33,405 bases of DNA, taken from IMG/VR virus record IMGVR_UViG_2778261165_000021; one strand, written 5' to 3'. Both the position numbers and the translations under genes were made by a program. Of this stretch, positions 3,531-13,780 are shown one piece after another (positions within the stretch are counted from its first letter, which is position 1; each line of letters opens with the position of its first letter). This DNA comes from a virus (taxonomy: Duplodnaviria > Heunggongvirae > Uroviricota > Caudoviricetes). Below the pieces are notes generated by a model. It searched no databases, had not been told where the DNA came from, and saw only the letters and a program-made list of their open reading frames with translations.

Positions 3531-3793
3531 CCATTCTGGACTACATCGCTACTCATCCGGGGTGTAGCGGCGGAGAGATCGCCGCAGCACTGAATACTCC
3601 AACCACAGCCATTAATGCTGAGTTACGCCAACTTTGGCGCGGCGGCTTAGTCATCAGAACAAACCGCAGCACAGGTGGTCGCGCTCGCAAAACTGGAGGC
3701 CAGGCTTCTTACCACGTAAACCCGATGCCGTTCGGGTGTAGCAATCCACTTACTCACATGTTTAACCAGCTACTGAAGGAAGCCAGAACATGA
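3527..3793 (+). CDS. Hypothetical protein, possible winged-helix DNA-binding fold
   Basis: 88-aa ORF; N-terminal segment ILDYIATHPGCSGGEIAAALNTPTTAINAELRQLWRGGLV resembles a winged-helix recognition module. Start and stop overlap neighbours. Confidence 0.5.
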   Translation: MTILDYIATHPGCSGGEIAAALNTPTTAINAELRQLWRGGLVIRTNRSTGGRARKTGGQASYHVNPMPFGCSNPLTHMFNQLLKEART

Positions 3794-4089
3794 GCACCAT
3801 CAACCACCAGAAGCTACGCGAACTGGCATTTGCCCTGCAACGAATGGCAACTCCTCAAAAATTACTGGCATTTCGCGCAATGCTCTCGCCGTCTGCTGTG
3901 CTGGCACTGCTGGATCAGCTGGAGCACGCCAGAACCACGGCTCCTGCCATTCGCCTGACGCTCCATCATGAAATCGCTGATTTCTGCGCAACGCTGGGGG
4001 CACCTGGCGAACCGGAAACGCCGGAAGCAATGCAGCAAGAGCTGCTGCAACGCATTGACAAGGTTTTTGATTTTTTTCTGAACCAGTAA
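3790..4089 (+). CDS. Ead/Ea22-like N-terminal-domain protein
   Basis: 99 aa. N-terminus MSTINHQKLRELA... and AVLALLDQLE motif resemble the N-terminal signature of lambdoid Ea22-family proteins, shared with ORFs at 9357 and 9953. Confidence 0.45.
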   Translation: MSTINHQKLRELAFALQRMATPQKLLAFRAMLSPSAVLALLDQLEHARTTAPAIRLTLHHEIADFCATLGAPGEPETPEAMQQELLQRIDKVFDFFLNQ

Positions 4090-4180
4090 GAAACCAGAAC
4101 ATGCACACACAAAAAAACCGCTTGCCATGCCGCAATCGGTCAGGTTACATTTCCGCTGCACCTCATAAAACGGGTGCCGG

Positions 4181-4366
4181 GATTCTCAACCCGATACAGA
4201 GCAAAGCGCATAACCGCGCCAGCGGTTTTTTTGTGCGTACTGTATTGCCACGTCTTTTTCGCGTCAGAATTATGGCGGGGCGTACGGGGCCGACTTCGGT
4301 CGGGCCGGATTCTTTGCTCTCCGGTGTTGAGAACCCTGTACGTCTCGCCACCCCGAGATTCTCAAC
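4181..4366. repeat. GATTCTCAAC direct repeat (4181-4190, 4357-4366) with inverted partner GTTGAGAA (4325-4332)
   Basis: Read directly in a roughly 320-bp non-coding stretch; the inverted pair can form an 8-bp stem around a 26-nt loop. Confidence 0.5.
4212..4232 (+). terminator. Candidate rho-independent terminator
   Basis: AACCGC-GCCA-GCGGTT stem-loop followed immediately by a T7 run; about 120 nt downstream of the 3790..4089 stop. Confidence 0.4.
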
Positions 4367-4411
4367 TCTGGATGGTGAGCTATTTCTATCACCGAGCAAA
4401 GAGGCCACACC

Positions 4412-4642
4412 ATGGCAAACCGCAAACAACAGCGCGCATACGCTGCGCGTCGTCACATCCAGACTGAAATCAACCGTAGACTTTTCCGCGCATCACGCGT
4501 CGCGCAAATCATGCACATCAATATGCTGCATGAGCGCAGCCACGCGCTATCGAACATCTATTCCGCCTCTGTTTTCAGCTATCTGGCGGATGATCTGCGC
4601 GAGCTGCAACAACTCTTCCAGCAGCAAAACAAACTCCATTAA
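4412..4642 (+). CDS. Hypothetical early protein
   Basis: 76-aa ORF, ATG at 4412 with AAAGAGG RBS 7 nt upstream; basic N-terminus. No family recognised. Confidence 0.5.
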   Translation: MANRKQQRAYAARRHIQTEINRRLFRASRVAQIMHINMLHERSHALSNIYSASVFSYLADDLRELQQLFQQQNKLH

Positions 4643-4714: not shown

Positions 4715-5104
4715 ATGATTGACGCTCATGACTTCACAAGATGGGTGCGCACACAGGACACCCGTCTGGCTCCCGTTCTTCAGGGATTATTTGATCTCTA
4801 CATCCGTGGTCGTGACAACAGAGCACGCACCACAAAACCGGAGAATGCAGACACCCTTTATTTCACAGTAGACGACTGCTACCGCGTGGACTTCACACCA
4901 CACGGGCTGGCGTTGCACTGCCTGACACCACACGGAGAATCACTGCTGGCGTATTACGACTCCCCGGCCTCCGTATTTGCGGCAATGCTGGCGCATCGCA
5001 CTGCTGGCGGGTGTGCCTCGCTGAGTGAATACACCGCTGAATTTAACCGCCTTTCTGCCCTCTTCTCGCAGGAGTGGCAGCGCGTGACGGGATACCAGCC
5101 ATGA
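4715..5104 (+). CDS. Hypothetical protein upstream of A
   Basis: 129-aa ORF with AAAGAG RBS; stop overlaps the A start (ATGA). Confidence 0.55.
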   Translation: MIDAHDFTRWVRTQDTRLAPVLQGLFDLYIRGRDNRARTTKPENADTLYFTVDDCYRVDFTPHGLALHCLTPHGESLLAYYDSPASVFAAMLAHRTAGGCASLSEYTAEFNRLSALFSQEWQRVTGYQP

Positions 5105-7941
5105 ATGAGTTTGCATGGAGCTGGAATGAACCACGGCCAGCCATTGATCCGGCCAGATTTACGGAGCACAGGCAGGAAACTGAAACCGACCTGCAACGCG
5201 CCATCCGTTACTACCTTGAGGCAGACAAAAAGGCTCTGGAAGAACAGGAAGCGAAGGAGGAAGCCTTTTTCGCACAATCCACCGTGGGTAAAAAACTCAT
5301 GGCATCCCTTGAGGAAGCCGGACAGCGTGAAAAGCTGGCACAAAGCATCATCAGCAAGCGTCAGGCAACAGAACAAGACCCGGTGGCCCGTGCTTTTGCC
5401 ACACTGAAGGTGCTTCCCGTTTATCTGCGTGAACCTCTGAGCCGCCACCTCTCTTTCCTGCGCAAAAAACAGGAAGCCGATCGCCAGAAAGGCAAAAAGA
5501 GCTGGCAGGCTGAACGCTACGCGCGCGGAACCCTGCGCAAAATATTCGAACGCCTGGACCGCACCGACCACCGCTGGCTGACACCGGGTTATCGCTCCCT
5601 TGCCGGACGCGAACGCCTGGATGATTTGCTTTACCTGCCGCAGCTCAACAAGCACCAGATACAGACGCTGGCCACCATGACGGCGGCGATGTTCAGCAGC
5701 ACCTTCGAAAAACTCTGCGATGGCTTTGGCGCGACCGATGGTGAGCTGACCATGGAGGTGGCACTGAAGGCGTATCAGATGCTGGCCCGCATGGTGTTAC
5801 ACCTGCACGCCATGCCTCCACATTATGACGCACTGACAACAGACAAAGACCGCAAGAACGAACCGGACACGGAACTGCTGCCGGGCGCAATCCTCCGCCT
5901 GACCTGTGCGGAATGGTGGAAACGCAAACTGTGGCTGTTACGTTGCGAGTGGCGGGAAGAACAACTCCGCGCCGCCTGTCTGGTTTCCAGAAAAACATCG
6001 CCCTATCTGAGCCAGGACGCGTTAAGCGAGTTTCGCGCACAGCGCGAGAAAACACGCGATTTCCTGAAAAGTTTCATGCTGGAAAACGAAGACGGGTTCA
6101 CGATTGATCTCGAGACGGTGTATTACGCGGGAGTAAGTAACCCGGTCCACCGTAAAGCAGAAATGATGGCCACCATGAAGGGGCTGGAACTTCTGGCCGA
6201 AGCCCGTGGCGACAGAGCGGTGTTTCTGACTGTCACCTGCCCGTCAAAATACCACGCCACAACAGAGAACGGTCATCCGAATCCCAAATGGAACGGGGCC
6301 ACCATGCGCGACTCCAGCGATTACCTGGTTAACACGTTTTTTGCGGCGGTCCGCAAAAAACTGAACCGCGATGGCCTGCGCTGGTATGGCATCCGCACGG
6401 TGGAGCCTCACCATGACGGCACCGTGCACTGGCATATGATGGTCTTTGCACATCCGGACGAGATTGAAACCATCGTGTCCCATGTCTGCGATATTGCCAT
6501 TCAGGAAGACCGCCACGAGCTGGGCGATGACATAACTCCGCGTTTTAAGGCTGAGTACGTAGACGGCTCAAAAGGCACGCCAACCAGCTACATCGCCACC
6601 TACATCGGAAAGAACCTGGACAGCCGCGCCGTGGATGGCATCGACCCGAAAACGGGCAAGCCACGCGTTGACCACGAAACCGGAAAATCAATGGCAGAGA
6701 GCGTGGAACGCGCCATCGGCTGGGCGCGCCTTCACCGGGTCCGCCAGTTCCAGTTCTTTGGCATTCCCTCTCGTCAGGTATGGCGTGAACTCCGCCGCCT
6801 TGCCAGCCAGATGGCACGCAACCCGGAAGGCCCACAACGGCTGAAGGATGATGCAATGGATGCGGTACTCGCTGCCGCTGATGCCGGGTGTTTTGCCACC
6901 TACATTGAGAAACAGGGCGGCGTACTTGTTCCACGCAAAGACTACCTGATTCGCACCGCCTACGACCTCGCAGATGAGCTGAACGATTACGGCGAGCAGA
7001 GTGTACAGATTTACGGGATCTGGTCGCCGCTCATCGGGGAGTCTTCCCGTGTGTGCACACATCCGGATAACTGGAAGCTGGTAAGACGTAAACCTGAAGC
7101 AGAAGACAGCGCCCGCGAAAATGGTTTTGACCTTCAGGGCGGCCCTGCCGCCCCTTGGACTCGTGGCAATAACTGTCCCCGTGTACAGGAAACGGACAAC
7201 AACGGGACAGAACAGCCGGAAGAACGGCCAGCGCCGTGGCCGCAGCTCCCTGACAGCGTTGATGTGGATGAATGGATGCGCTCACTGAAACGGCACGAAC
7301 GCCGGGCGCTGATGCGTTCGCTTCGTGACAAACAGGCAAAAAACAGCAGTGATGAAATGCAGAGCTGGACACAGAGCCGCAAACAGCAGCGGCCTTTGCC
7401 TGATAACCACGAATTACTCGCTAAAGAATGGCGGGAGTCTGCTGAATCTCTCGGCCTGCATATCGGTGAACAGCAGATGCAGCACCTGTTACGGGGCGGC
7501 AGTCTGTACGTTGACGGCAGCATCATTGCACCGCAGGGATTTGAAATTGTACGCAAACCGGATACCCGCCCGGACAGCCGAATCACGCAGCTCTGGCAGC
7601 GCCTGAGCCGTAATCATGGCGTAAGCAGCACGGAGATCCGCCATAACCCGGTCGCCAGCTATCTGGCACAGCTGGGGTCATCAGACCCTGAAGCCGCCGC
7701 ACGCCTGGCATCCACACTTCAGCAGGACCAGAACACCATGAAAACACCCGTTACCGTGCTTTCTGACATGCTGCGCGCCATCCGCGACGCAGAGCACGCA
7801 CAGAGAATCAGTGAAACCACTGAACGCGCCAGCCGCAAAGCAGACCTGCTGCGGGGTAGCCTGACCAGTGGAAACAAAAAACAGACAGAAACGGGATTCA
7901 CAAATCCCGTAAATGAGCAAAAAACGTGCCGCGATATATGA
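5101..7941 (+). CDS. A: Replication initiation endonuclease (P2 A-like, rolling-circle HUH family)
   Basis: 947 aa from ATG 5101 (track ORF 5074). HUH-type motif VHWHMMVFAH and paired catalytic tyrosines in SYIATYIGKN (YxxxY). Position after the early ORFs as in P2. Confidence 0.9.
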   Translation: MNEFAWSWNEPRPAIDPARFTEHRQETETDLQRAIRYYLEADKKALEEQEAKEEAFFAQSTVGKKLMASLEEAGQREKLAQSIISKRQATEQDPVARAFATLKVLPVYLREPLSRHLSFLRKKQEADRQKGKKSWQAERYARGTLRKIFERLDRTDHRWLTPGYRSLAGRERLDDLLYLPQLNKHQIQTLATMTAAMFSSTFEKLCDGFGATDGELTMEVALKAYQMLARMVLHLHAMPPHYDALTTDKDRKNEPDTELLPGAILRLTCAEWWKRKLWLLRCEWREEQLRAACLVSRKTSPYLSQDALSEFRAQREKTRDFLKSFMLENEDGFTIDLETVYYAGVSNPVHRKAEMMATMKGLELLAEARGDRAVFLTVTCPSKYHATTENGHPNPKWNGATMRDSSDYLVNTFFAAVRKKLNRDGLRWYGIRTVEPHHDGTVHWHMMVFAHPDEIETIVSHVCDIAIQEDRHELGDDITPRFKAEYVDGSKGTPTSYIATYIGKNLDSRAVDGIDPKTGKPRVDHETGKSMAESVERAIGWARLHRVRQFQFFGIPSRQVWRELRRLASQMARNPEGPQRLKDDAMDAVLAAADAGCFATYIEKQGGVLVPRKDYLIRTAYDLADELNDYGEQSVQIYGIWSPLIGESSRVCTHPDNWKLVRRKPEAEDSARENGFDLQGGPAAPWTRGNNCPRVQETDNNGTEQPEERPAPWPQLPDSVDVDEWMRSLKRHERRALMRSLRDKQAKNSSDEMQSWTQSRKQQRPLPDNHELLAKEWRESAESLGLHIGEQQMQHLLRGGSLYVDGSIIAPQGFEIVRKPDTRPDSRITQLWQRLSRNHGVSSTEIRHNPVASYLAQLGSSDPEAAARLASTLQQDQNTMKTPVTVLSDMLRAIRDAEHAQRISETTERASRKADLLRGSLTSGNKKQTETGFTNPVNEQKTCRDI

Positions 7942-7981
7942 AGCGCGCACAAAACAGGCAAAAGCGGGATTTAAAAATCCT
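7892..7981. promoter_or_regulatory. Two 18-bp palindromes flanking a putative promoter upstream of the parM-like gene (candidate parC-like centromere/operator)
   Basis: CGGGATTCACAAATCCCG (7892-7909, inside the 3' end of A) and CGGGATTTAAAAATCCTG (7964-7981); TGAGCA / TATATG hexamers between them; AAGGAA RBS follows before ATG 8018. Confidence 0.35.
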
Positions 7982-8017
7982 GTAACCGATTAATTAATCA
8001 ACATAAGGAAAAACGAC

Positions 8018-8977
8018 ATGAAAATTTGTATCGACGACGGCTCCACCAACATCAAGCTGGCATGGACTGAGAACGGCGAACGCCGCAACGCCATCAGCCC
8101 GAACAGCTTCAAGTCGGAATGGTCTGCGCCGTTCGGTGGCACGCAGCCCGCGAACTACATGCTTGATGGCGTGCGCTATGGTTTTGATCCGGTCAGCGAT
8201 CGCTTTGTCCAGACGACCGACACGCAATACCAGTACAGCGATGTGAATGTCATTGCCATTCATCACGCGCTGGTCAAATCAGGCATCACGCCACAGGAGG
8301 TGGATGTGGTTGTCACCCTGCCACTGAGCGAGTATTTCGACACAAACGCACAGCCGGACATGGCCAACATCAACCGCAAAAAAGCGAACGTTATGCGCCC
8401 GGTGGAGTACCAGAACGGCGAAGCATTCACTATCCGTAACGTGCGGGTTATGCCTGAATCCATTCCGGCCGGCTTTAAGGCACTGGCTGACATGAGTCCG
8501 TTTGAATCCCTGCTGATTGTGGATTTGGGCGGAACCACGCTGGATGTGGCAAAGGTTCAGGGGCAACTGGCAGGTATCAGCCAGGTGTTTTGCGATCCAC
8601 ACGTAGGCGTTTCTCTGATGGCCGATGCCGTACTGTCGGTGATGGCCACTAACGGTATGCGCACCAGTCACCACATCGCCAATACCATTATCGAACATCG
8701 CCATGATGAAGCCTGGCTGCGCCAGCACATCCACAATGACGCACATTACGCCAGCCTGATGGCGGTTATTCGTGAAAAGGAAGAAACACTGAAACAACGC
8801 GTGATCCGCGCGCTGGCGGGTTTTTCGGGTTACGGGCGGGTGATGGTTGTAGGTGGAGGAGCGGAGATTGTGGCACCCGCTATCCGCGAAGCCTGCGGAG
8901 TTAATGCGACTTTCATCGCGGACGGGGTGCCACAGTTTGCTCTGGTTAATGGGCTGTACGCAATGGACAAGGAGTAA
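8018..8977 (+). CDS. parM: Actin-like ATPase, ParM/StbA family
   Basis: 319 aa. Actin-fold nucleotide-binding motifs IDDGSTNIK, LIVDLGGTTLDV and VMVVGGGAEIV. Resembles plasmid R1 ParM along its whole length as recalled (MKICIDDGSTNIKLAW; YQYSDVNVIAIHHAL; RNVRVMPESIPAGF). Confidence 0.85.
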   Translation: MKICIDDGSTNIKLAWTENGERRNAISPNSFKSEWSAPFGGTQPANYMLDGVRYGFDPVSDRFVQTTDTQYQYSDVNVIAIHHALVKSGITPQEVDVVVTLPLSEYFDTNAQPDMANINRKKANVMRPVEYQNGEAFTIRNVRVMPESIPAGFKALADMSPFESLLIVDLGGTTLDVAKVQGQLAGISQVFCDPHVGVSLMADAVLSVMATNGMRTSHHIANTIIEHRHDEAWLRQHIHNDAHYASLMAVIREKEETLKQRVIRALAGFSGYGRVMVVGGGAEIVAPAIREACGVNATFIADGVPQFALVNGLYAMDKE

Positions 8978-8981
8978 ACCA

Positions 8982-9293
8982 ATGACGACACCAACCAGAC
9001 GGATAAGTTTCTATCTGAAGCCCGCCGCCGTCAAGAACGAAGGCGAAGCATGCGCCTGGCTGGACAGCCTTACACCAGAAGCCCGCAAAAGCGGCCAACG
9101 CGTGGCTTTTCTGGCCGGGCTGGCACTTCTGAAAATGAATCCGGCAGAGGCTTACCGACTGGCTGCATGGGCTGATGATGAGGCGTTATCAGTGACACAA
9201 ACCAGGACAGAACGCCCCCTGTCACAGCCAGTACCAACCGCACAGATAACCAGTCAGATGGCCAGAAATATCAGGGCGTTATTTCCTGAATAA
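8982..9293 (+). CDS. parR: ParR/StbB-like centromere-binding adaptor
   Basis: 103 aa from ATG 8982 with AAGGAG RBS (track ORF 8853 has a long non-homologous leader). RRISFYLKP..., AFLAGLALL and C-terminal IRALFPE resemble R1 ParR as recalled. Immediately downstream of parM-like gene. Confidence 0.65.
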   Translation: MTTPTRRISFYLKPAAVKNEGEACAWLDSLTPEARKSGQRVAFLAGLALLKMNPAEAYRLAAWADDEALSVTQTRTERPLSQPVPTAQITSQMARNIRALFPE

Positions 9294-9299
9294 CACAAC

Positions 9300-9321
9300 A
9301 TCAGGGCGTGTTCGCCCTGAT
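9300..9321 (+). other. GC-rich hairpin downstream of parR-like gene
   Basis: Perfect 9-bp inverted repeat ATCAGGGCG-TGTT-CGCCCTGAT; ATCAGGGCG also occurs 30 bp upstream at 9270-9278. No T-tract follows, so not a classical terminator. Confidence 0.35.
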
Positions 9322-9356
9322 CTCCACCTCAGAACATAAACAAGGAGACCGACTTA

Positions 9357-9956
9357 ATGAGCGAAATCAACTATCAGGCACTGCGTGAGTTAGCAAAACA
9401 GGCAACACAGGGCGAATGGGTCGCATTTATTTCGCCGGGCAAATACGGCACGTACGCCGTGCACACACCAGGAGATAATCATCACGGAGATATTGTCGAC
9501 TGGCCTGGATTCGACGAACAGAAAAACGCAGAGAACAACGCTCGTTATATCGCAGCTTTCAACCCTGAAGTAGTGCAGGCTCTGTTGGATGAACGAGAAG
9601 CCCAAAGCAAACGCATTGCAGAGCTGGAGGCTAATTTCACGGAGCTGGCAGCGGAGAATGCCGCAATGAAGCTGTTTATCAGGGGCAGTTGCTATGTATT
9701 TGATGGAGAGCAGGATGAAATATCTGACGCGTATATCTGCGCAACAGACGGAGGAATGCCACAAACCCCAGCCACCGACGCTTTTCTGGCTGAAGTACGG
9801 GCGCAGGGCGTGGAGATGCTGGCAAAAAATCATCAGAGTATCGTCAATGCACTTAAGGGAGATTCTTTATTTTCTGATGATGAATACCGACATGCAGCTA
9901 TTGTTTCCGCAGCTGTATATTTCGCCGCAGAGCTTCGCAAAGGAGGCAGCCAGTGA
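9357..9956 (+). CDS. Ead/Ea22-like protein
   Basis: 199 aa. N-terminus MSEINYQALRELAKQATQGEW and later VQALLDEREAQSKRIAELE resemble the lambdoid Ea22-family signature. AAGGAG RBS. Visibly lower GC than the par genes. Confidence 0.5.
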   Translation: MSEINYQALRELAKQATQGEWVAFISPGKYGTYAVHTPGDNHHGDIVDWPGFDEQKNAENNARYIAAFNPEVVQALLDEREAQSKRIAELEANFTELAAENAAMKLFIRGSCYVFDGEQDEISDAYICATDGGMPQTPATDAFLAEVRAQGVEMLAKNHQSIVNALKGDSLFSDDEYRHAAIVSAAVYFAAELRKGGSQ

Positions 9957-10492
9957 GCAAAATTGACTATCAGGCACTACAAATGGCAGCAGAACGTGCA
10001 ATTCCGGCAATGGAACGCCTGTTAATATTGCCAGTTGATGATGATTTGTTAAGCGAACAGGAACTTAAAGATTACGGTGTGGATATTGACGCGATCAACA
10101 CCTTCAGAATTCTGGCTGGACCGGAAGACATGCTGGCACTGCTGGATGAACTGGAAACAGCAAAAAAGCGCATCGCTGAACTGGAAAAAATCGCCACTGA
10201 CTATGCACTTAAATTCCAGAAAGCACAGGACGCATTAAAGTATGCCGCTTTGTCGCATAGCCGGACGGCGCAACAAACAAATAATCTTGCTGTATCGCTT
10301 CCGGACATAAGCGAATATTTCATTAATGACGTATTTCAGCCCTTGCGATACGAGCGGGATGTTGAAAGAGCCATCATAAAGGCTGGCGGAAAAGCATTGT
10401 GGCAGGAGAAACACGAGGACAGAACGCATCAGTCCTGCGATGTAAATCGTGGATGGTTTAGCCCACTGACGACAGATAAAAATAACACCTAA
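9953..10492 (+). CDS. Ead/Ea22-like protein (tandem paralogue)
   Basis: 179 aa from GTG 9953 overlapping the upstream stop (GTGA), AGGAGG RBS. N-terminus SKIDYQALQMAAERA and LALLDELETAKKRIAELE parallel the preceding ORF. Confidence 0.5.
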   Translation: MSKIDYQALQMAAERAIPAMERLLILPVDDDLLSEQELKDYGVDIDAINTFRILAGPEDMLALLDELETAKKRIAELEKIATDYALKFQKAQDALKYAALSHSRTAQQTNNLAVSLPDISEYFINDVFQPLRYERDVERAIIKAGGKALWQEKHEDRTHQSCDVNRGWFSPLTTDKNNT

Positions 10493-10982: not shown

Positions 10983-12029
10983 TCAGGATGTGGGCTGGGT
11001 GTCTAACAGTGCGTAAGGGTTAAAGCGGATCACCTCTTCGCCAAGCCAGTCATTGATGTGCTTCATGGCCTCCATGACGGGCATCAGCTCGTTAATTGCG
11101 TAAACCCGCGCGGCCTTCTCCACATCACCAAACGCACTTTTTTCACCCGGCATCGCCCCCATCAGTTGCGGCGGAACGCGGTGCGCAGCCAGCACATCAT
11201 CACGGGATGCCGCCTTAACATTCATGAACTCATCCTTTGCGGTGATCTGCTGGAACGGCAAAATTTGCACCCCCTCTTTGCCCCCGTTGGGCGCATGAAT
11301 GAGCACGTTTTTAAACGCACCACCACCACGCGCACCCTGTAGCGTTTCTTTCAGGGAGTCCATGCTTTCGCGGTTTACCTGCGCTGCACCGATGTAGATG
11401 ATGCACCCGGCGTGGGATCCGTTGTCGTAATACAGTTTTCTGAACATGTCCGCCGAATGAGACAGGCTGGCCGAGAGTAATGCGCCGAGATATTCCGGCA
11501 TGCCGTAGATTTCCTGGTTAATGTCCGGATTGATCAGGTGGCACACTTTGCCTGGGCGAAACTGAAACGCATCCTTGCCATCCTGCACATACCACCATGA
11601 TTCAAGATCACTTCCGCGGCGCATGTATTTCGCCAGGGCGTGCCGTAATTTAAGCGGTTCGCCGAGCATATTGTTCCGAAGCTCAAGGAATGCGTTACCG
11701 AACACAAACCAGTCCAGCGCCAGCGCCGAGAAATCCTGCCGGGAAAGCAGCGGGTGCGGAATATAGCAACCGAGCAATACATTGCGCTTAAAGTAAAGCG
11801 CAGACTGATGCCAGGACGTTTGCCGGGCAGCTCTTGCCAGACCGTACCAGTCCACCGGGGTTTCATACCACCGCCCGTTATCAGCACAGTACATATTGTC
11901 CAGCAGGTCATGCCCGGTCAGGCGATAAGGACCATCAAATGTGAATGCACTGAGCGATGATTCTTTCCTGAGCGCATCAGCGAGATCAATGCGTGAACTC
12001 ATGCGCACTTTTTTATTTTTTCTGCTCAT
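10983..12029 (-). CDS. Q: Portal protein (P2 Q-like)
   Basis: 348 aa; length, position and sequence character match P2 gpQ as recalled. Start overlaps the P stop, as expected for a coupled Q-P packaging operon. Confidence 0.9.
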   Translation of the reverse strand: MSRKNKKVRMSSRIDLADALRKESSLSAFTFDGPYRLTGHDLLDNMYCADNGRWYETPVDWYGLARAARQTSWHQSALYFKRNVLLGCYIPHPLLSRQDFSALALDWFVFGNAFLELRNNMLGEPLKLRHALAKYMRRGSDLESWWYVQDGKDAFQFRPGKVCHLINPDINQEIYGMPEYLGALLSASLSHSADMFRKLYYDNGSHAGCIIYIGAAQVNRESMDSLKETLQGARGGGAFKNVLIHAPNGGKEGVQILPFQQITAKDEFMNVKAASRDDVLAAHRVPPQLMGAMPGEKSAFGDVEKAARVYAINELMPVMEAMKHINDWLGEEVIRFNPYALLDTQPTS

Positions 12030-13780
12030 CAGAACTCCATAACCGTGAAACGCTCGTTTTCTCCTTCGCCGCCAATCGGTTCGTTAATGACAGCAAGCAT
12101 GGTTGCCCACGCAAGGTCGCCGTGGCTGATCCCCCTCGCACGGTCCGTTTCGTAAGTGATAAAGCCGCCCGGTGTTTTCACCTTACGCACGGCGTTAAAG
12201 GCCGCGACCAGCTCGCGTTCGGCGCGATCGTATTCCCACCGCCCGGCACGCATTATTTGCAGCATTTTCAGTACCAGCGACCGTTTTGATGACAGCGTGA
12301 AGGTGTACGGAATAGCGGCAGGGAAAAACCGTTTCACTATCTGATAAACAGCCTCCCCGTTCCCGCCCGTCACATCAATGCCGATGTGTTCCACGTTGTA
12401 GCGACACGTGAACTCTTCAATGACTCTGGCCTGTTCTTCAAACTCCAGCCCCTGAACGCGTCGCGTCTCCACCGTTCGAAAACGGCCACCAGGAACAGTC
12501 GGAGGAACCACCACGGACACAGCGCCGCTGTCGCCGTTGCCACTGCTGCCGTTTGCGTCATACCCAATCCATACCGGACGATTCCCCATCGGACGGGGAG
12601 CAAAAGGTTTCCAGTCTTTCCAGTCGTCGTATCCGTCAACGCCGCAGCCAATCAGGATATTCAGGTTAAATGCCGATTCCCCTTCGCGGACAAACTCACA
12701 CATATAGAGATTGAGGAACTCGTCTTCGGTGTTTTCATCACGAATTTCGTCGATATCAGTGTGTTTCCAGCCGTGATTAACCACATCTTCCAGCGTGACA
12801 ATCTGCCGCCACGTCCGGTCAGGGCAGATAAGCCCGTTATGCAGCGTTTTCCAGTCCACAGAAAAACGCTGGCGTTTATGCGTGGCCTTTTTCTCGTTCC
12901 AGCGGTCGCCGTTCCAGTAGGCGTATGCTTCGTGCGTTTCGGTGGATGGCGTGGAGAAGTAGGTGCGCCGCAGTCCGCTGAGGGTTGCCATAGCGCCAGC
13001 CACCTTGCGCAGTTCAGCAAAGCGACTGACCCAGAAAAATTCATCAAAATAAAAATTGCCCGTATAGGACTGCGCCGACGCAGCAGAAGTGCCGAGAAAA
13101 TGCAGCTCTGCGCCGTTGGAGAGGATGATTTTATCGCCCCCTTTCAGCTCCACATCAACTTCAGCCGCAGCCTTCTGAATAATGCTTTTAAACTGGAACG
13201 CCTGACGACGCGACGCAGACAAAAAAATCTGGTTACGCTGGTAAGGTTGTGCCACATCGTCACGCAGCGCCATCAGCAGTGCTTCCTGTGCAAAATACCA
13301 GGTCGCCCCAATCTGTCGGGATTTCAGGATCATCCTGTTACGTATCCCGGCTTCCCTGCAAAGGGTCAGGGAGTCAAACCAGCCCCGCTGATGCCACTCC
13401 AGCCTGCTGATGATTTTTTCCCGCAGTGCGGCAATCTGTTCCGGCGTGAAATGATTTTTGAGTTTTTTCGCCCGGCCTTTCTTTCCTGTGGCCGTCGCAT
13501 CCGGCTGGCCATCATGCAGTTTTTTAAGCTGCCGGGTCAGCAGGTCTATTTCCTTGAAGTCACCACCTGTTTTATTCTGTTTTTCAGTGAGCTGGATGAG
13601 GCGCGCATCGATGGACTGCGTGACACGCTGCACGGGTGGCGTTTCATCCCACTGGTCGCGTTTTTTCCACGCATAAATCGTGTTCGGGTTTATTCCCATC
13701 AGACGTGATATTTCTGCGGGCGGATAACCCTGCCAGTAAAGTTGCCGCGCACGCTGGCGCACAAAAGCGTCCTGAATCAT
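12029..13780 (-). CDS. P: Terminase large subunit (P2 P-like)
   Basis: 583 aa; N-terminus MIQDAFVRQRARQLYWQGYPPAEISRLMGINPNTIYAWKKRDQWDE is typical of the P2 gpP terminase ATPase. Confidence 0.9.
   Translation of the reverse strand: MIQDAFVRQRARQLYWQGYPPAEISRLMGINPNTIYAWKKRDQWDETPPVQRVTQSIDARLIQLTEKQNKTGGDFKEIDLLTRQLKKLHDGQPDATATGKKGRAKKLKNHFTPEQIAALREKIISRLEWHQRGWFDSLTLCREAGIRNRMILKSRQIGATWYFAQEALLMALRDDVAQPYQRNQIFLSASRRQAFQFKSIIQKAAAEVDVELKGGDKIILSNGAELHFLGTSAASAQSYTGNFYFDEFFWVSRFAELRKVAGAMATLSGLRRTYFSTPSTETHEAYAYWNGDRWNEKKATHKRQRFSVDWKTLHNGLICPDRTWRQIVTLEDVVNHGWKHTDIDEIRDENTEDEFLNLYMCEFVREGESAFNLNILIGCGVDGYDDWKDWKPFAPRPMGNRPVWIGYDANGSSGNGDSGAVSVVVPPTVPGGRFRTVETRRVQGLEFEEQARVIEEFTCRYNVEHIGIDVTGGNGEAVYQIVKRFFPAAIPYTFTLSSKRSLVLKMLQIMRAGRWEYDRAERELVAAFNAVRKVKTPGGFITYETDRARGISHGDLAWATMLAVINEPIGGEGENERFTVMEF

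Follow-up and report, generated by a model that had tools for sequence, protein, structure and literature searches.

A predicted ParMRC partition cassette with a two-palindrome candidate centromere in a P88-like temperate phage

Described partition systems and the phage cassette

The ParMRC (StbAB) partition system of the R1/NR1 (IncFII) plasmids has the order centromere-parM-parR, and R1 parC consists of ten 11-bp direct iterons. The same order, with a candidate centromere in first place, is present in a 33,405-nt stretch of virus DNA (IMG/VR record IMGVR_UViG_2778261165_000021, Caudoviricetes; hereafter the window), whereby the host replicon of the R1 locus is a plasmid and the phage cassette resides in an integrating tailed phage. 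By its sequence, this is a real ParM/ParR cassette with two palindromes as the candidate centromere. It is probably a functional type II DNA-segregation cassette that forms a core module of the P88-like (Xuanwuvirus) temperate phages, for which the general ParMRC mechanism is predicted. Canonical partition appears the most likely activity, because all components of a type II system are represented, the centromere by a candidate, and selection maintains them.

SrpMRC of the SXT/R391 integrative and conjugative elements is a type II system which stabilises the excised, rolling-circle-replicating form of these elements (Carraro et al. 2015, PMC4489591). Its likeness to the phage cassette lies in the strict conservation of a type II locus within a family of normally integrated elements and in centromere repeats upstream of the ParM-like gene; SrpMRC acts on a transient excised circle that replicates by means of a rolling-circle enzyme (PMC4489591). 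In contrast to the phage ParM, which is close to that of R1, SrpM and SrpR are remote relatives of R1 ParMR, and the SXT/R391 elements are conjugative. Moreover, the activity of SrpMRC has been demonstrated, whereas the phage cassette is known here from sequence alone.

In the Corynebacterium glutamicum prophage CGP3, efficient replication of the phage DNA depends on the AlpAC/alpS system (Donovan et al. 2015, PMC4446434). Similar to the phage cassette, it combines a prophage-borne actin-like ATPase with a co-transcribed DNA-binding adaptor; the AlpAC adaptor binds its own upstream promoter region, and the system acts on circular phage DNA after induction (PMC4446434). It differs in belonging to another actin-like family with another adaptor, in a large cryptic prophage of a Gram-positive host, and its phenotype concerns replication efficiency, not inheritance.

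At the locus itself, between gene A and the portal gene Q (A-Q), a putative plasmid-partitioning system was reported for approximately one quarter of P2-like phages by Rousset et al. (2022; PMC9122126), who analysed the gpA-gpQ hotspot of Escherichia coli P2-like phages, a documented anti-phage hotspot, and placed the system under 'other functions'. Their supplementary tables hold hundreds of entries with StbA + Plasmid_stab_B arrangements. The module, annotated in RefSeq ('plasmid segregation protein ParM', 'plasmid partitioning/stability family protein') and PHROGs and with its presence and frequency published, is thus already known, and as a discovery it adds little. New here are its near-fixation in the P88-like lineage, the strong purifying selection on parM, the restriction of this ParR type to phages and the minimal candidate centromere. 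Its interest lies in the part it may play in a phage that integrates and in how unusually small that candidate centromere is.

The ParM and ParR proteins

An earlier annotation of this DNA, made by a model from the letters only (the sequence-only reading), had identified the two genes correctly and with exact coordinates, and profile and structure-database comparisons gave significant matches for both (Pfam; R1 ParM, 9e-93; pB171 ParR, 0.0012). The order parM then parR, the palindromes upstream and the site between gene A and the portal gene Q were likewise as it had described them.

8006-8010, + strand: Shine-Dalgarno sequence AAGGA of parM (read from the sequence)
8018-8977, + strand: parM, actin-fold ATPase of 319 aa (Pfam, PHROG, homology to R1 ParM)
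8982-9293, + strand: parR, adaptor of 103 aa (Pfam, PHROG, profile comparison)

Judging from sequence comparison, the product of 8018-8977 is a true ParM and a close homologue of R1 ParM. It matches both Pfam ParM domains end to end and far above the cut-offs (StbA_N, 1.8e-82; ParM C-terminal domain, 1.3e-68), as well as PHROG 691 ('partition protein'). Against the R1 ParM structure (1mwk), phmmer gave 9e-93, and BLASTP aligned the protein along its full length with R1-type ParM at 47% identity and 68% positives over 318 aa. Pairwise, the phosphate-1 (IDDGSTNIKL), catalytic (MPESIPAG), phosphate-2 (DLGGTTLD) and adenosine (GGGAE) motifs are unchanged relative to R1 ParM. The nucleotide-binding and hydrolysis motifs of a type II ATPase are thereby present, including the equivalents of E148 and D170, residues whose roles are known for R1 ParM. 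No NCBIfam model matched ParM or ParR above its cut-off; since the NCBIfam ParM equivalog model reached only 19 bits against a cut-off of 417, it describes another ParM clade. The ratio of nonsynonymous to synonymous substitution rates (dN/dS) of parM was 0.02-0.10 against five relatives, with 0.039 at a dS of 0.63 against Hafnia, and the gene is under strong purifying selection.

The product of 8982-9293, whose gene begins on the same strand 4 nt after the end of parM, is by the same kind of evidence a ParR/StbB-family adaptor. It matched Pfam Plasmid_stab_B (PF10784; 1.6e-24, residues 6-76) and, over the full length, PHROG 2515 ('partition protein'); residues 1-63 make up the N-terminal DNA-binding domain of ParR/StbB, of the ribbon-helix-helix type. 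This domain is homologous to that of R1 ParR, with 33% identity over residues 1-61 and an hhalign probability of 96.8% between the phage and the R1 ParR families (residues 4-64). The R1 ParR/StbB query was verified by its 100% identity to sequences next to parM in >1,000 plasmids. With the family profile, the best PDB match was pB171 ParR (2jd3; E 0.0012, residues 9-75 against 11-76), albeit a weak similarity, and a PDB search with the single ParR sequence returned chance matches only (E >1). The AlphaFold2 monomer, built on a 12-sequence alignment, was too unreliable as a structure of the phage ParR for a fold search (predicted local distance difference test 54.7, predicted template modelling score 0.33). 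The helix pattern of this model, with three helices, a gap at 62-86 and a C-terminal helix at 87-100, is weak support.

Across 12 diverse members of the phage ParR family, the N-terminus (1-63, TRRISFYLKP...AFLAGLAL) is strongly conserved, the linker (64-90) is hypervariable, and conservation returns in the last eight residues, NI[RQ]A[LF]FPE. The R1-type ParR follows a parallel plan, in which a conserved terminal TKxNxxKLI[NS] stands after a variable linker. The terminal helix of R1 ParR is the ParM-binding helix in PDB 4a62. In comparison, R1 ParR has 117 aa and the C-terminal motif KKNAMKLIN, the phage ParR 103 aa and NIRALFPE.

The dN/dS of parR was higher (0.25-0.57, five relatives), driven by the linker. 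In 569R5, 705R2 and E. albertii, parM and parC are near-identical to those of the window, whereas parR diverges after approximately the 18th codon to 52-56% protein identity; in 569R5, parM has 98.3% nucleotide identity to the window and a dS of 0.06, as opposed to 1.24 for parR. The alleles compared for the breakpoint were 8982-9293 of the window, 4283-4597 of locus L003 and 6001-6315 of locus L012. This places a recombination boundary of the variable region within parR, some 55 nt from the start of the gene, and the variable A-Q cargo begins after, and in part within, parR. The first 18 and the last 8 residues of ParR are retained across the recombinant alleles.

These data bear on the idea that the cassette is an inactive, plasmid-derived relic which hitch-hikes beside gene A and whose ParR is at most a local repressor. 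The presence of two ParR-type sites only and the lack of a clear promoter speak for a relic. The open reading frame of parM is, however, intact in >1,200 genomes and across genera at a dN/dS of 0.02-0.10, and both ends of ParR are conserved despite recombination within the gene. A relic was rejected on the dN/dS of parM and is considered very improbable.

The candidate centromere

The region upstream of parM contains two similar repeats, the first of which overlaps gene A.

5101-7941, + strand: gene A, P88-type replication endonuclease (Pfam Phage_GPA, 6.5e-129)
7875-7912, + strand: parC repeat 1, a 38-nt unit with a perfect palindrome at 7892-7909, CGGGATT and AATCCCG around the spacer CACA (repeat and palindrome scans)
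7948-7985, + strand: parC repeat 2, a 38-nt unit with a palindrome at 7965-7982, CGGGATT and AATCCTG around the spacer TAAA (repeat and palindrome scans)
7914-7940, + strand: weak promoter-like pair between the palindromes, TGAGCA (7914-7919), 15 nt, TATATG (7935-7940) (read from the sequence)

The 38-nt units are direct repeats with 82% identity, 73 bp apart from start to start, i.e., approximately seven helical turns. The 18-bp palindromes within them, CGGGATTCACAAATCCCG and CGGGATTTAAAAATCCTG, had been pointed out in the sequence-only reading and are real: they are the sole matches in the 33.4 kb at up to 2 mismatches, as opposed to 0.15 expected, and none of 100 shuffled sequences reached two. 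As described there, the 3' end of gene A contains the first palindrome; the gene extends to 7941, and its final ~50 nt overlap the candidate centromere. The last ~15 codons of A that overlap parC are missing in Hafnia, whose A ends within palindrome 1.

The half-sites GGGATT and AATCC(C) are kept in relatives from Salmonella, E. albertii and Hafnia and in several phages, whose 4-bp spacers vary (CACA, CATG and TACG in the first repeat; TAAA, TGAA and TCAG in the second). In repeat 2, the spacer is the most variable stretch, with 22% non-consensus letters as opposed to 1-4% in the half-sites, and most relatives have AATCCCG instead of the AATCCTG of the window. Among 84 close relatives, the whole upstream region is ~97% conserved, which makes half-site conservation non-discriminating, and the comparison with Hafnia was used instead. 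There, 23 of 24 half-site positions are identical against 87 of 134 (65%) elsewhere in 7860-8017 (Fisher p=0.001), and the sole half-site mismatch is the window's own deviation from a perfect palindrome.

The arrangement resembles that of R1 in having repeats upstream of parM around a promoter-like stretch, and the ribosome-site context CATAAGGA of parM is common to both. The R1 centromere, visible as an A/C-rich iteron region upstream of parM, is composed of two blocks of five direct iterons, whereas the candidate sites of the phage are inverted repeats, namely two 18-bp palindromes. The promoter-like pair noted in the sequence-only reading is indeed present between the palindromes but weak, with 3/6 and 4/6 agreement with the consensus at a 15-nt spacer, and was not picked up by a sigma-70 scan. 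Hafnia keeps both hexamers as TGAACA-16-TATAAG in a stretch that is non-coding there because gene A stops inside palindrome 1. The terminator scan found no + strand terminator between A and parM; since parMR follows A on the same strand without a predicted terminator, the pair is probably co-expressed with the early/replication operon, plausibly by read-through from that operon.

Distribution, possible role and genomic setting

The left end of the window holds the following gene, together with a repressor-like helix-turn-helix gene and a cox gene.

1-1023, - strand: complete tyrosine integrase (annotation of the window's left end)

From these three genes, the window belongs to a P2-like temperate phage that integrates, in agreement with the sequence-only reading. 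DNA identity is 97.7% to phage P88 over 95% of 7700-9400 and 97.8% to Xuanwuvirus P884B11 over the A-parM-parR region, and the window shares with P88 the A-parM-parR order in near-identical DNA. By sequence, this assigns the phage to the P88-like genus Xuanwuvirus, Peduoviridae. The E. coli GPEC1446 prophage is 100% identical to the window over 7700-9400 and has another integrase arm (12159-13154 of locus L001); the first 400 nt align poorly. At the sequence level, this comparison shows a mosaic of integration module versus replication/partition module.

The gene parM was found in 1,303 of 5,426 complete E. coli genomes, in 1,279 of them at at least 80% coverage, and 1,441 of its 1,443 places are chromosomal. 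The carriers of this prophage-borne chromosomal gene include E. coli O157:H7, O104:H4, O145, O103 and ST131. Fourteen phage records also have parMR, among them P88, Citrobacter phage phiSM and the Xuanwuvirus type genomes, and IMG/VR adds 212 further loci. The module is thus routine at this place, as Rousset et al. (2022) had also found, and it is not unusual; routine presence here in ordinary P2-like prophages is a circumstance that the sequence-only reading had itself named as counting against its interpretation. Since the P88-type A gene occurs at at least 80% coverage in 1,322 genomes as compared to 1,279 with parM, nearly every P88-like prophage has parMR, which is near-fixed in this lineage and is a core module rather than variable cargo. 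The earlier description of A-Q as a variable locus therefore holds across P2-like phages but not for parMR, which is constant within the P88-like lineage.

The A-parM-parR order is kept in E. coli, Salmonella, E. albertii and Hafnia. ParR proteins that diverge further, the most distant at 64% identity, again came from P2-like contexts, 3' of A and parM where the contig extends that far, and in one Hafnia contig the portal gene directly follows parR. An exact-peptide scan of genome contigs returned three species only, because this method reaches none but close relatives; it says little about distant ones. On plasmids, tblastn with the phage-type ParR against 72,556 records gave seven, all of them P88-like prophage DNA, whereas R1-type ParR is widespread (3,461 plasmids). 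The ParR type of the window is essentially phage-restricted. A 226-kb contig labelled Vagococcus sp. WN89Y (NZ_JBQPOM010000071.1) contains this enterobacterial parMR at 93% ParR identity and 97.5% parM nucleotide identity and is probably a contamination or a mislabelled assembly.

The chromosomal location bears on the suggestion of Rousset et al. (2022) that the phage is facultatively a plasmid prophage, in which the cassette would secure persistence as a low-copy plasmid over many generations. The one point in its favor is a circular record of 34,461 bp, pZ1323PEC0009-2 (NZ_CP148288.1), deposited as a non-mobilizable 'plasmid' of a cat E. coli isolate; its sequence is that of an entire P88-like phage, integrase and parMR included. 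However, a relative with 99.9% identity is chromosomal in strain Z1323HEC0067, and spontaneous excision can also give a circular contig. Moreover, all but two of the parM places are chromosomal, an integrase is present in every element examined, and the Pfam scan revealed no plasmid-type replicon, only the rolling-circle gene A. Phage-plasmids of the P1, N15 and SSU5 type are, by comparison, extrachromosomal, have a plasmid replicon and typically do not integrate. A plasmid lifestyle is accordingly improbable.

The preferred explanation, a working segregation cassette, draws on the identity of ParM and ParR, the uniqueness of the palindromes in the window, the conserved half-sites, purifying selection and the linkage to A. 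By binding the two GGGATT-N4-AATCC palindromes, ParR dimers would autoregulate transcription and build a small partition complex. The C-terminal helix of ParR would then capture the ends of ATP-ParM filaments, which would push parC-bearing DNA circles apart. Given that this is an integrating phage, with almost every copy in a chromosome, the expected substrate is the transient circular phage genome, which is present between infection and integration and again upon excision, during the rolling-circle replication driven by gene A. The benefit might be inheritance of a copy by both daughter cells or the spreading and positioning of copies.

Several points weigh against such a function. The hhalign comparison did not extend past ParR residue 64, and the terminal motif was not aligned to the ParM-binding helix of R1 ParR; by sequence, NI[RQ]A[LF]FPE resembles an internal R1 stretch, NILRSLFPKE, at least as well. 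The candidate centromere has two sites only and may be a mere operator, and the sigma-70 scan at 9/12 showed no promoter in 7600-9500. A non-replicating, repressed circle gains nothing from partition, so the benefit hinges on timing. The literature search found no functional study of the phage parMR module.

The main competitor is a lytic, replication-organising role similar to that of AlpAC (PMC4446434), in which ParM filaments would move or anchor replicating circles via ParR/parC for efficient gene-A replication or packaging, whereby inheritance by daughter cells would be irrelevant. Consistent with such a role are, besides the CGP3 precedent, the strict linkage to the P88-type A gene and the location of the cassette, which overlaps the end of A and continues directly 3' of it on the same strand without an intervening terminator. 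P2-type replication yields monomeric circles, and these would suit as ParMRC cargo. On the other hand, P2, 186 and the majority of other P2-like phages need no such module to replicate, and ParM is an R1-type segregation ParM (47% identity) rather than a relative of AlpC, with Pfam ALP_N below the cut-off. A lytic role is possible but rather unlikely. By analogy with what was shown for SrpMRC, a role is favoured in which circles would be inherited or distributed before they integrate and again once they have been excised.

A co-opted exclusion, defence or incompatibility function, e.g., interference with ParMRC plasmids or other phages, is a further alternative; exclusion and defence had been raised in the sequence-only reading, and old and tin act in this way at the same locus in P2. 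The A-Q interval is a documented anti-phage hotspot (PMC9122126), and cross-talk with the IncFII-type plasmid ParM is conceivable at 47% identity. The pair nevertheless behaves as a lineage-fixed core module rather than swappable cargo, and Rousset et al. (2022) filed it under 'other functions'. All three ParMRC parts are kept, with parM under strong purifying selection, as expected for the ancestral mechanical function. PADLOC gave no match for ParM, ParR or the two Ead/Ea22-like proteins encoded downstream. A co-opted function of this kind was left without support and rejected on the lack of a PADLOC match and the core-gene behaviour of the pair; it is at best a far-fetched explanation.

A more specific version of the segregation reading is proposed tentatively, as a serious possibility. 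The cassette might be an obligatory component of the P88-like life cycle rather than a plasmid leftover, in which an R1-type ParM spindle, together with a minimal centromere of two palindromes, would distribute or position rolling-circle-derived circles and measurably raise the efficiency of lysogenisation, prophage retention after abortive excision, or burst size. If true, a role would for the first time be demonstrated for a type II partition machine of an integrating tailed coliphage. About one quarter of complete E. coli genomes contain a prophage-borne chromosomal ParM 47% identical to the textbook R1 protein, and the module might interact with the ParMRC of IncF plasmids. Action on a transient circular genome would extend active partition of integrating elements from SXT/R391 to tailed phages, and a very small natural candidate centromere would be of use for mechanistic work.

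Upstream of the cassette, the extent of gene A (946 aa) was taken from the RefSeq annotation of a matching prophage and mapped to the window. The P88-type A proteins have ~946-955 aa, of which the Phage_GPA domain covers residues 194-518 only, and the ~430 C-terminal residues have no Pfam match. On the other side, a hairpin stands just 3' of parR.

9300-9321, no strand assigned: hairpin with a perfect 9-bp stem, ATCAGGGCG-TGTT-CGCCCTGAT

Lacking a T run on the + strand, it does not qualify as a canonical terminator of that strand. The block shared with P88 and PhiR44_2 extends to 9321, the end of the hairpin, and that shared with other phages to 9293-9296; the hairpin may mark a module boundary or act as a terminator on the - strand. 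Beyond it follow two tandem Ead/Ea22-like genes (9357-10492; PF13935, 2.3e-25 and 1e-21) and then the leftward portal and terminase genes (10983-13780). It is this Ead/Ea22-like pair that makes up the truly variable cargo, with unrelated genes in its place between parR and the portal gene in other P88-like phages. A third, weak Ead/Ea22-like match is located at 3790-4089.

Finally, Rfam detected in the region 4158-4355 (+ strand) an isrK Hfq-binding RNA (4158-4232, 62.8 bits) and, immediately 3' of it, a C4 antisense RNA (4268-4355, 78.5 bits), both upstream of an open reading frame for a 'Derepression' family protein (4412-4642, + strand; PF25738). This set in the early region of a P2-like phage looks like an anti-repressor control module of the P1/P7 c4-ant type or the Gifsy-1 isrK type.

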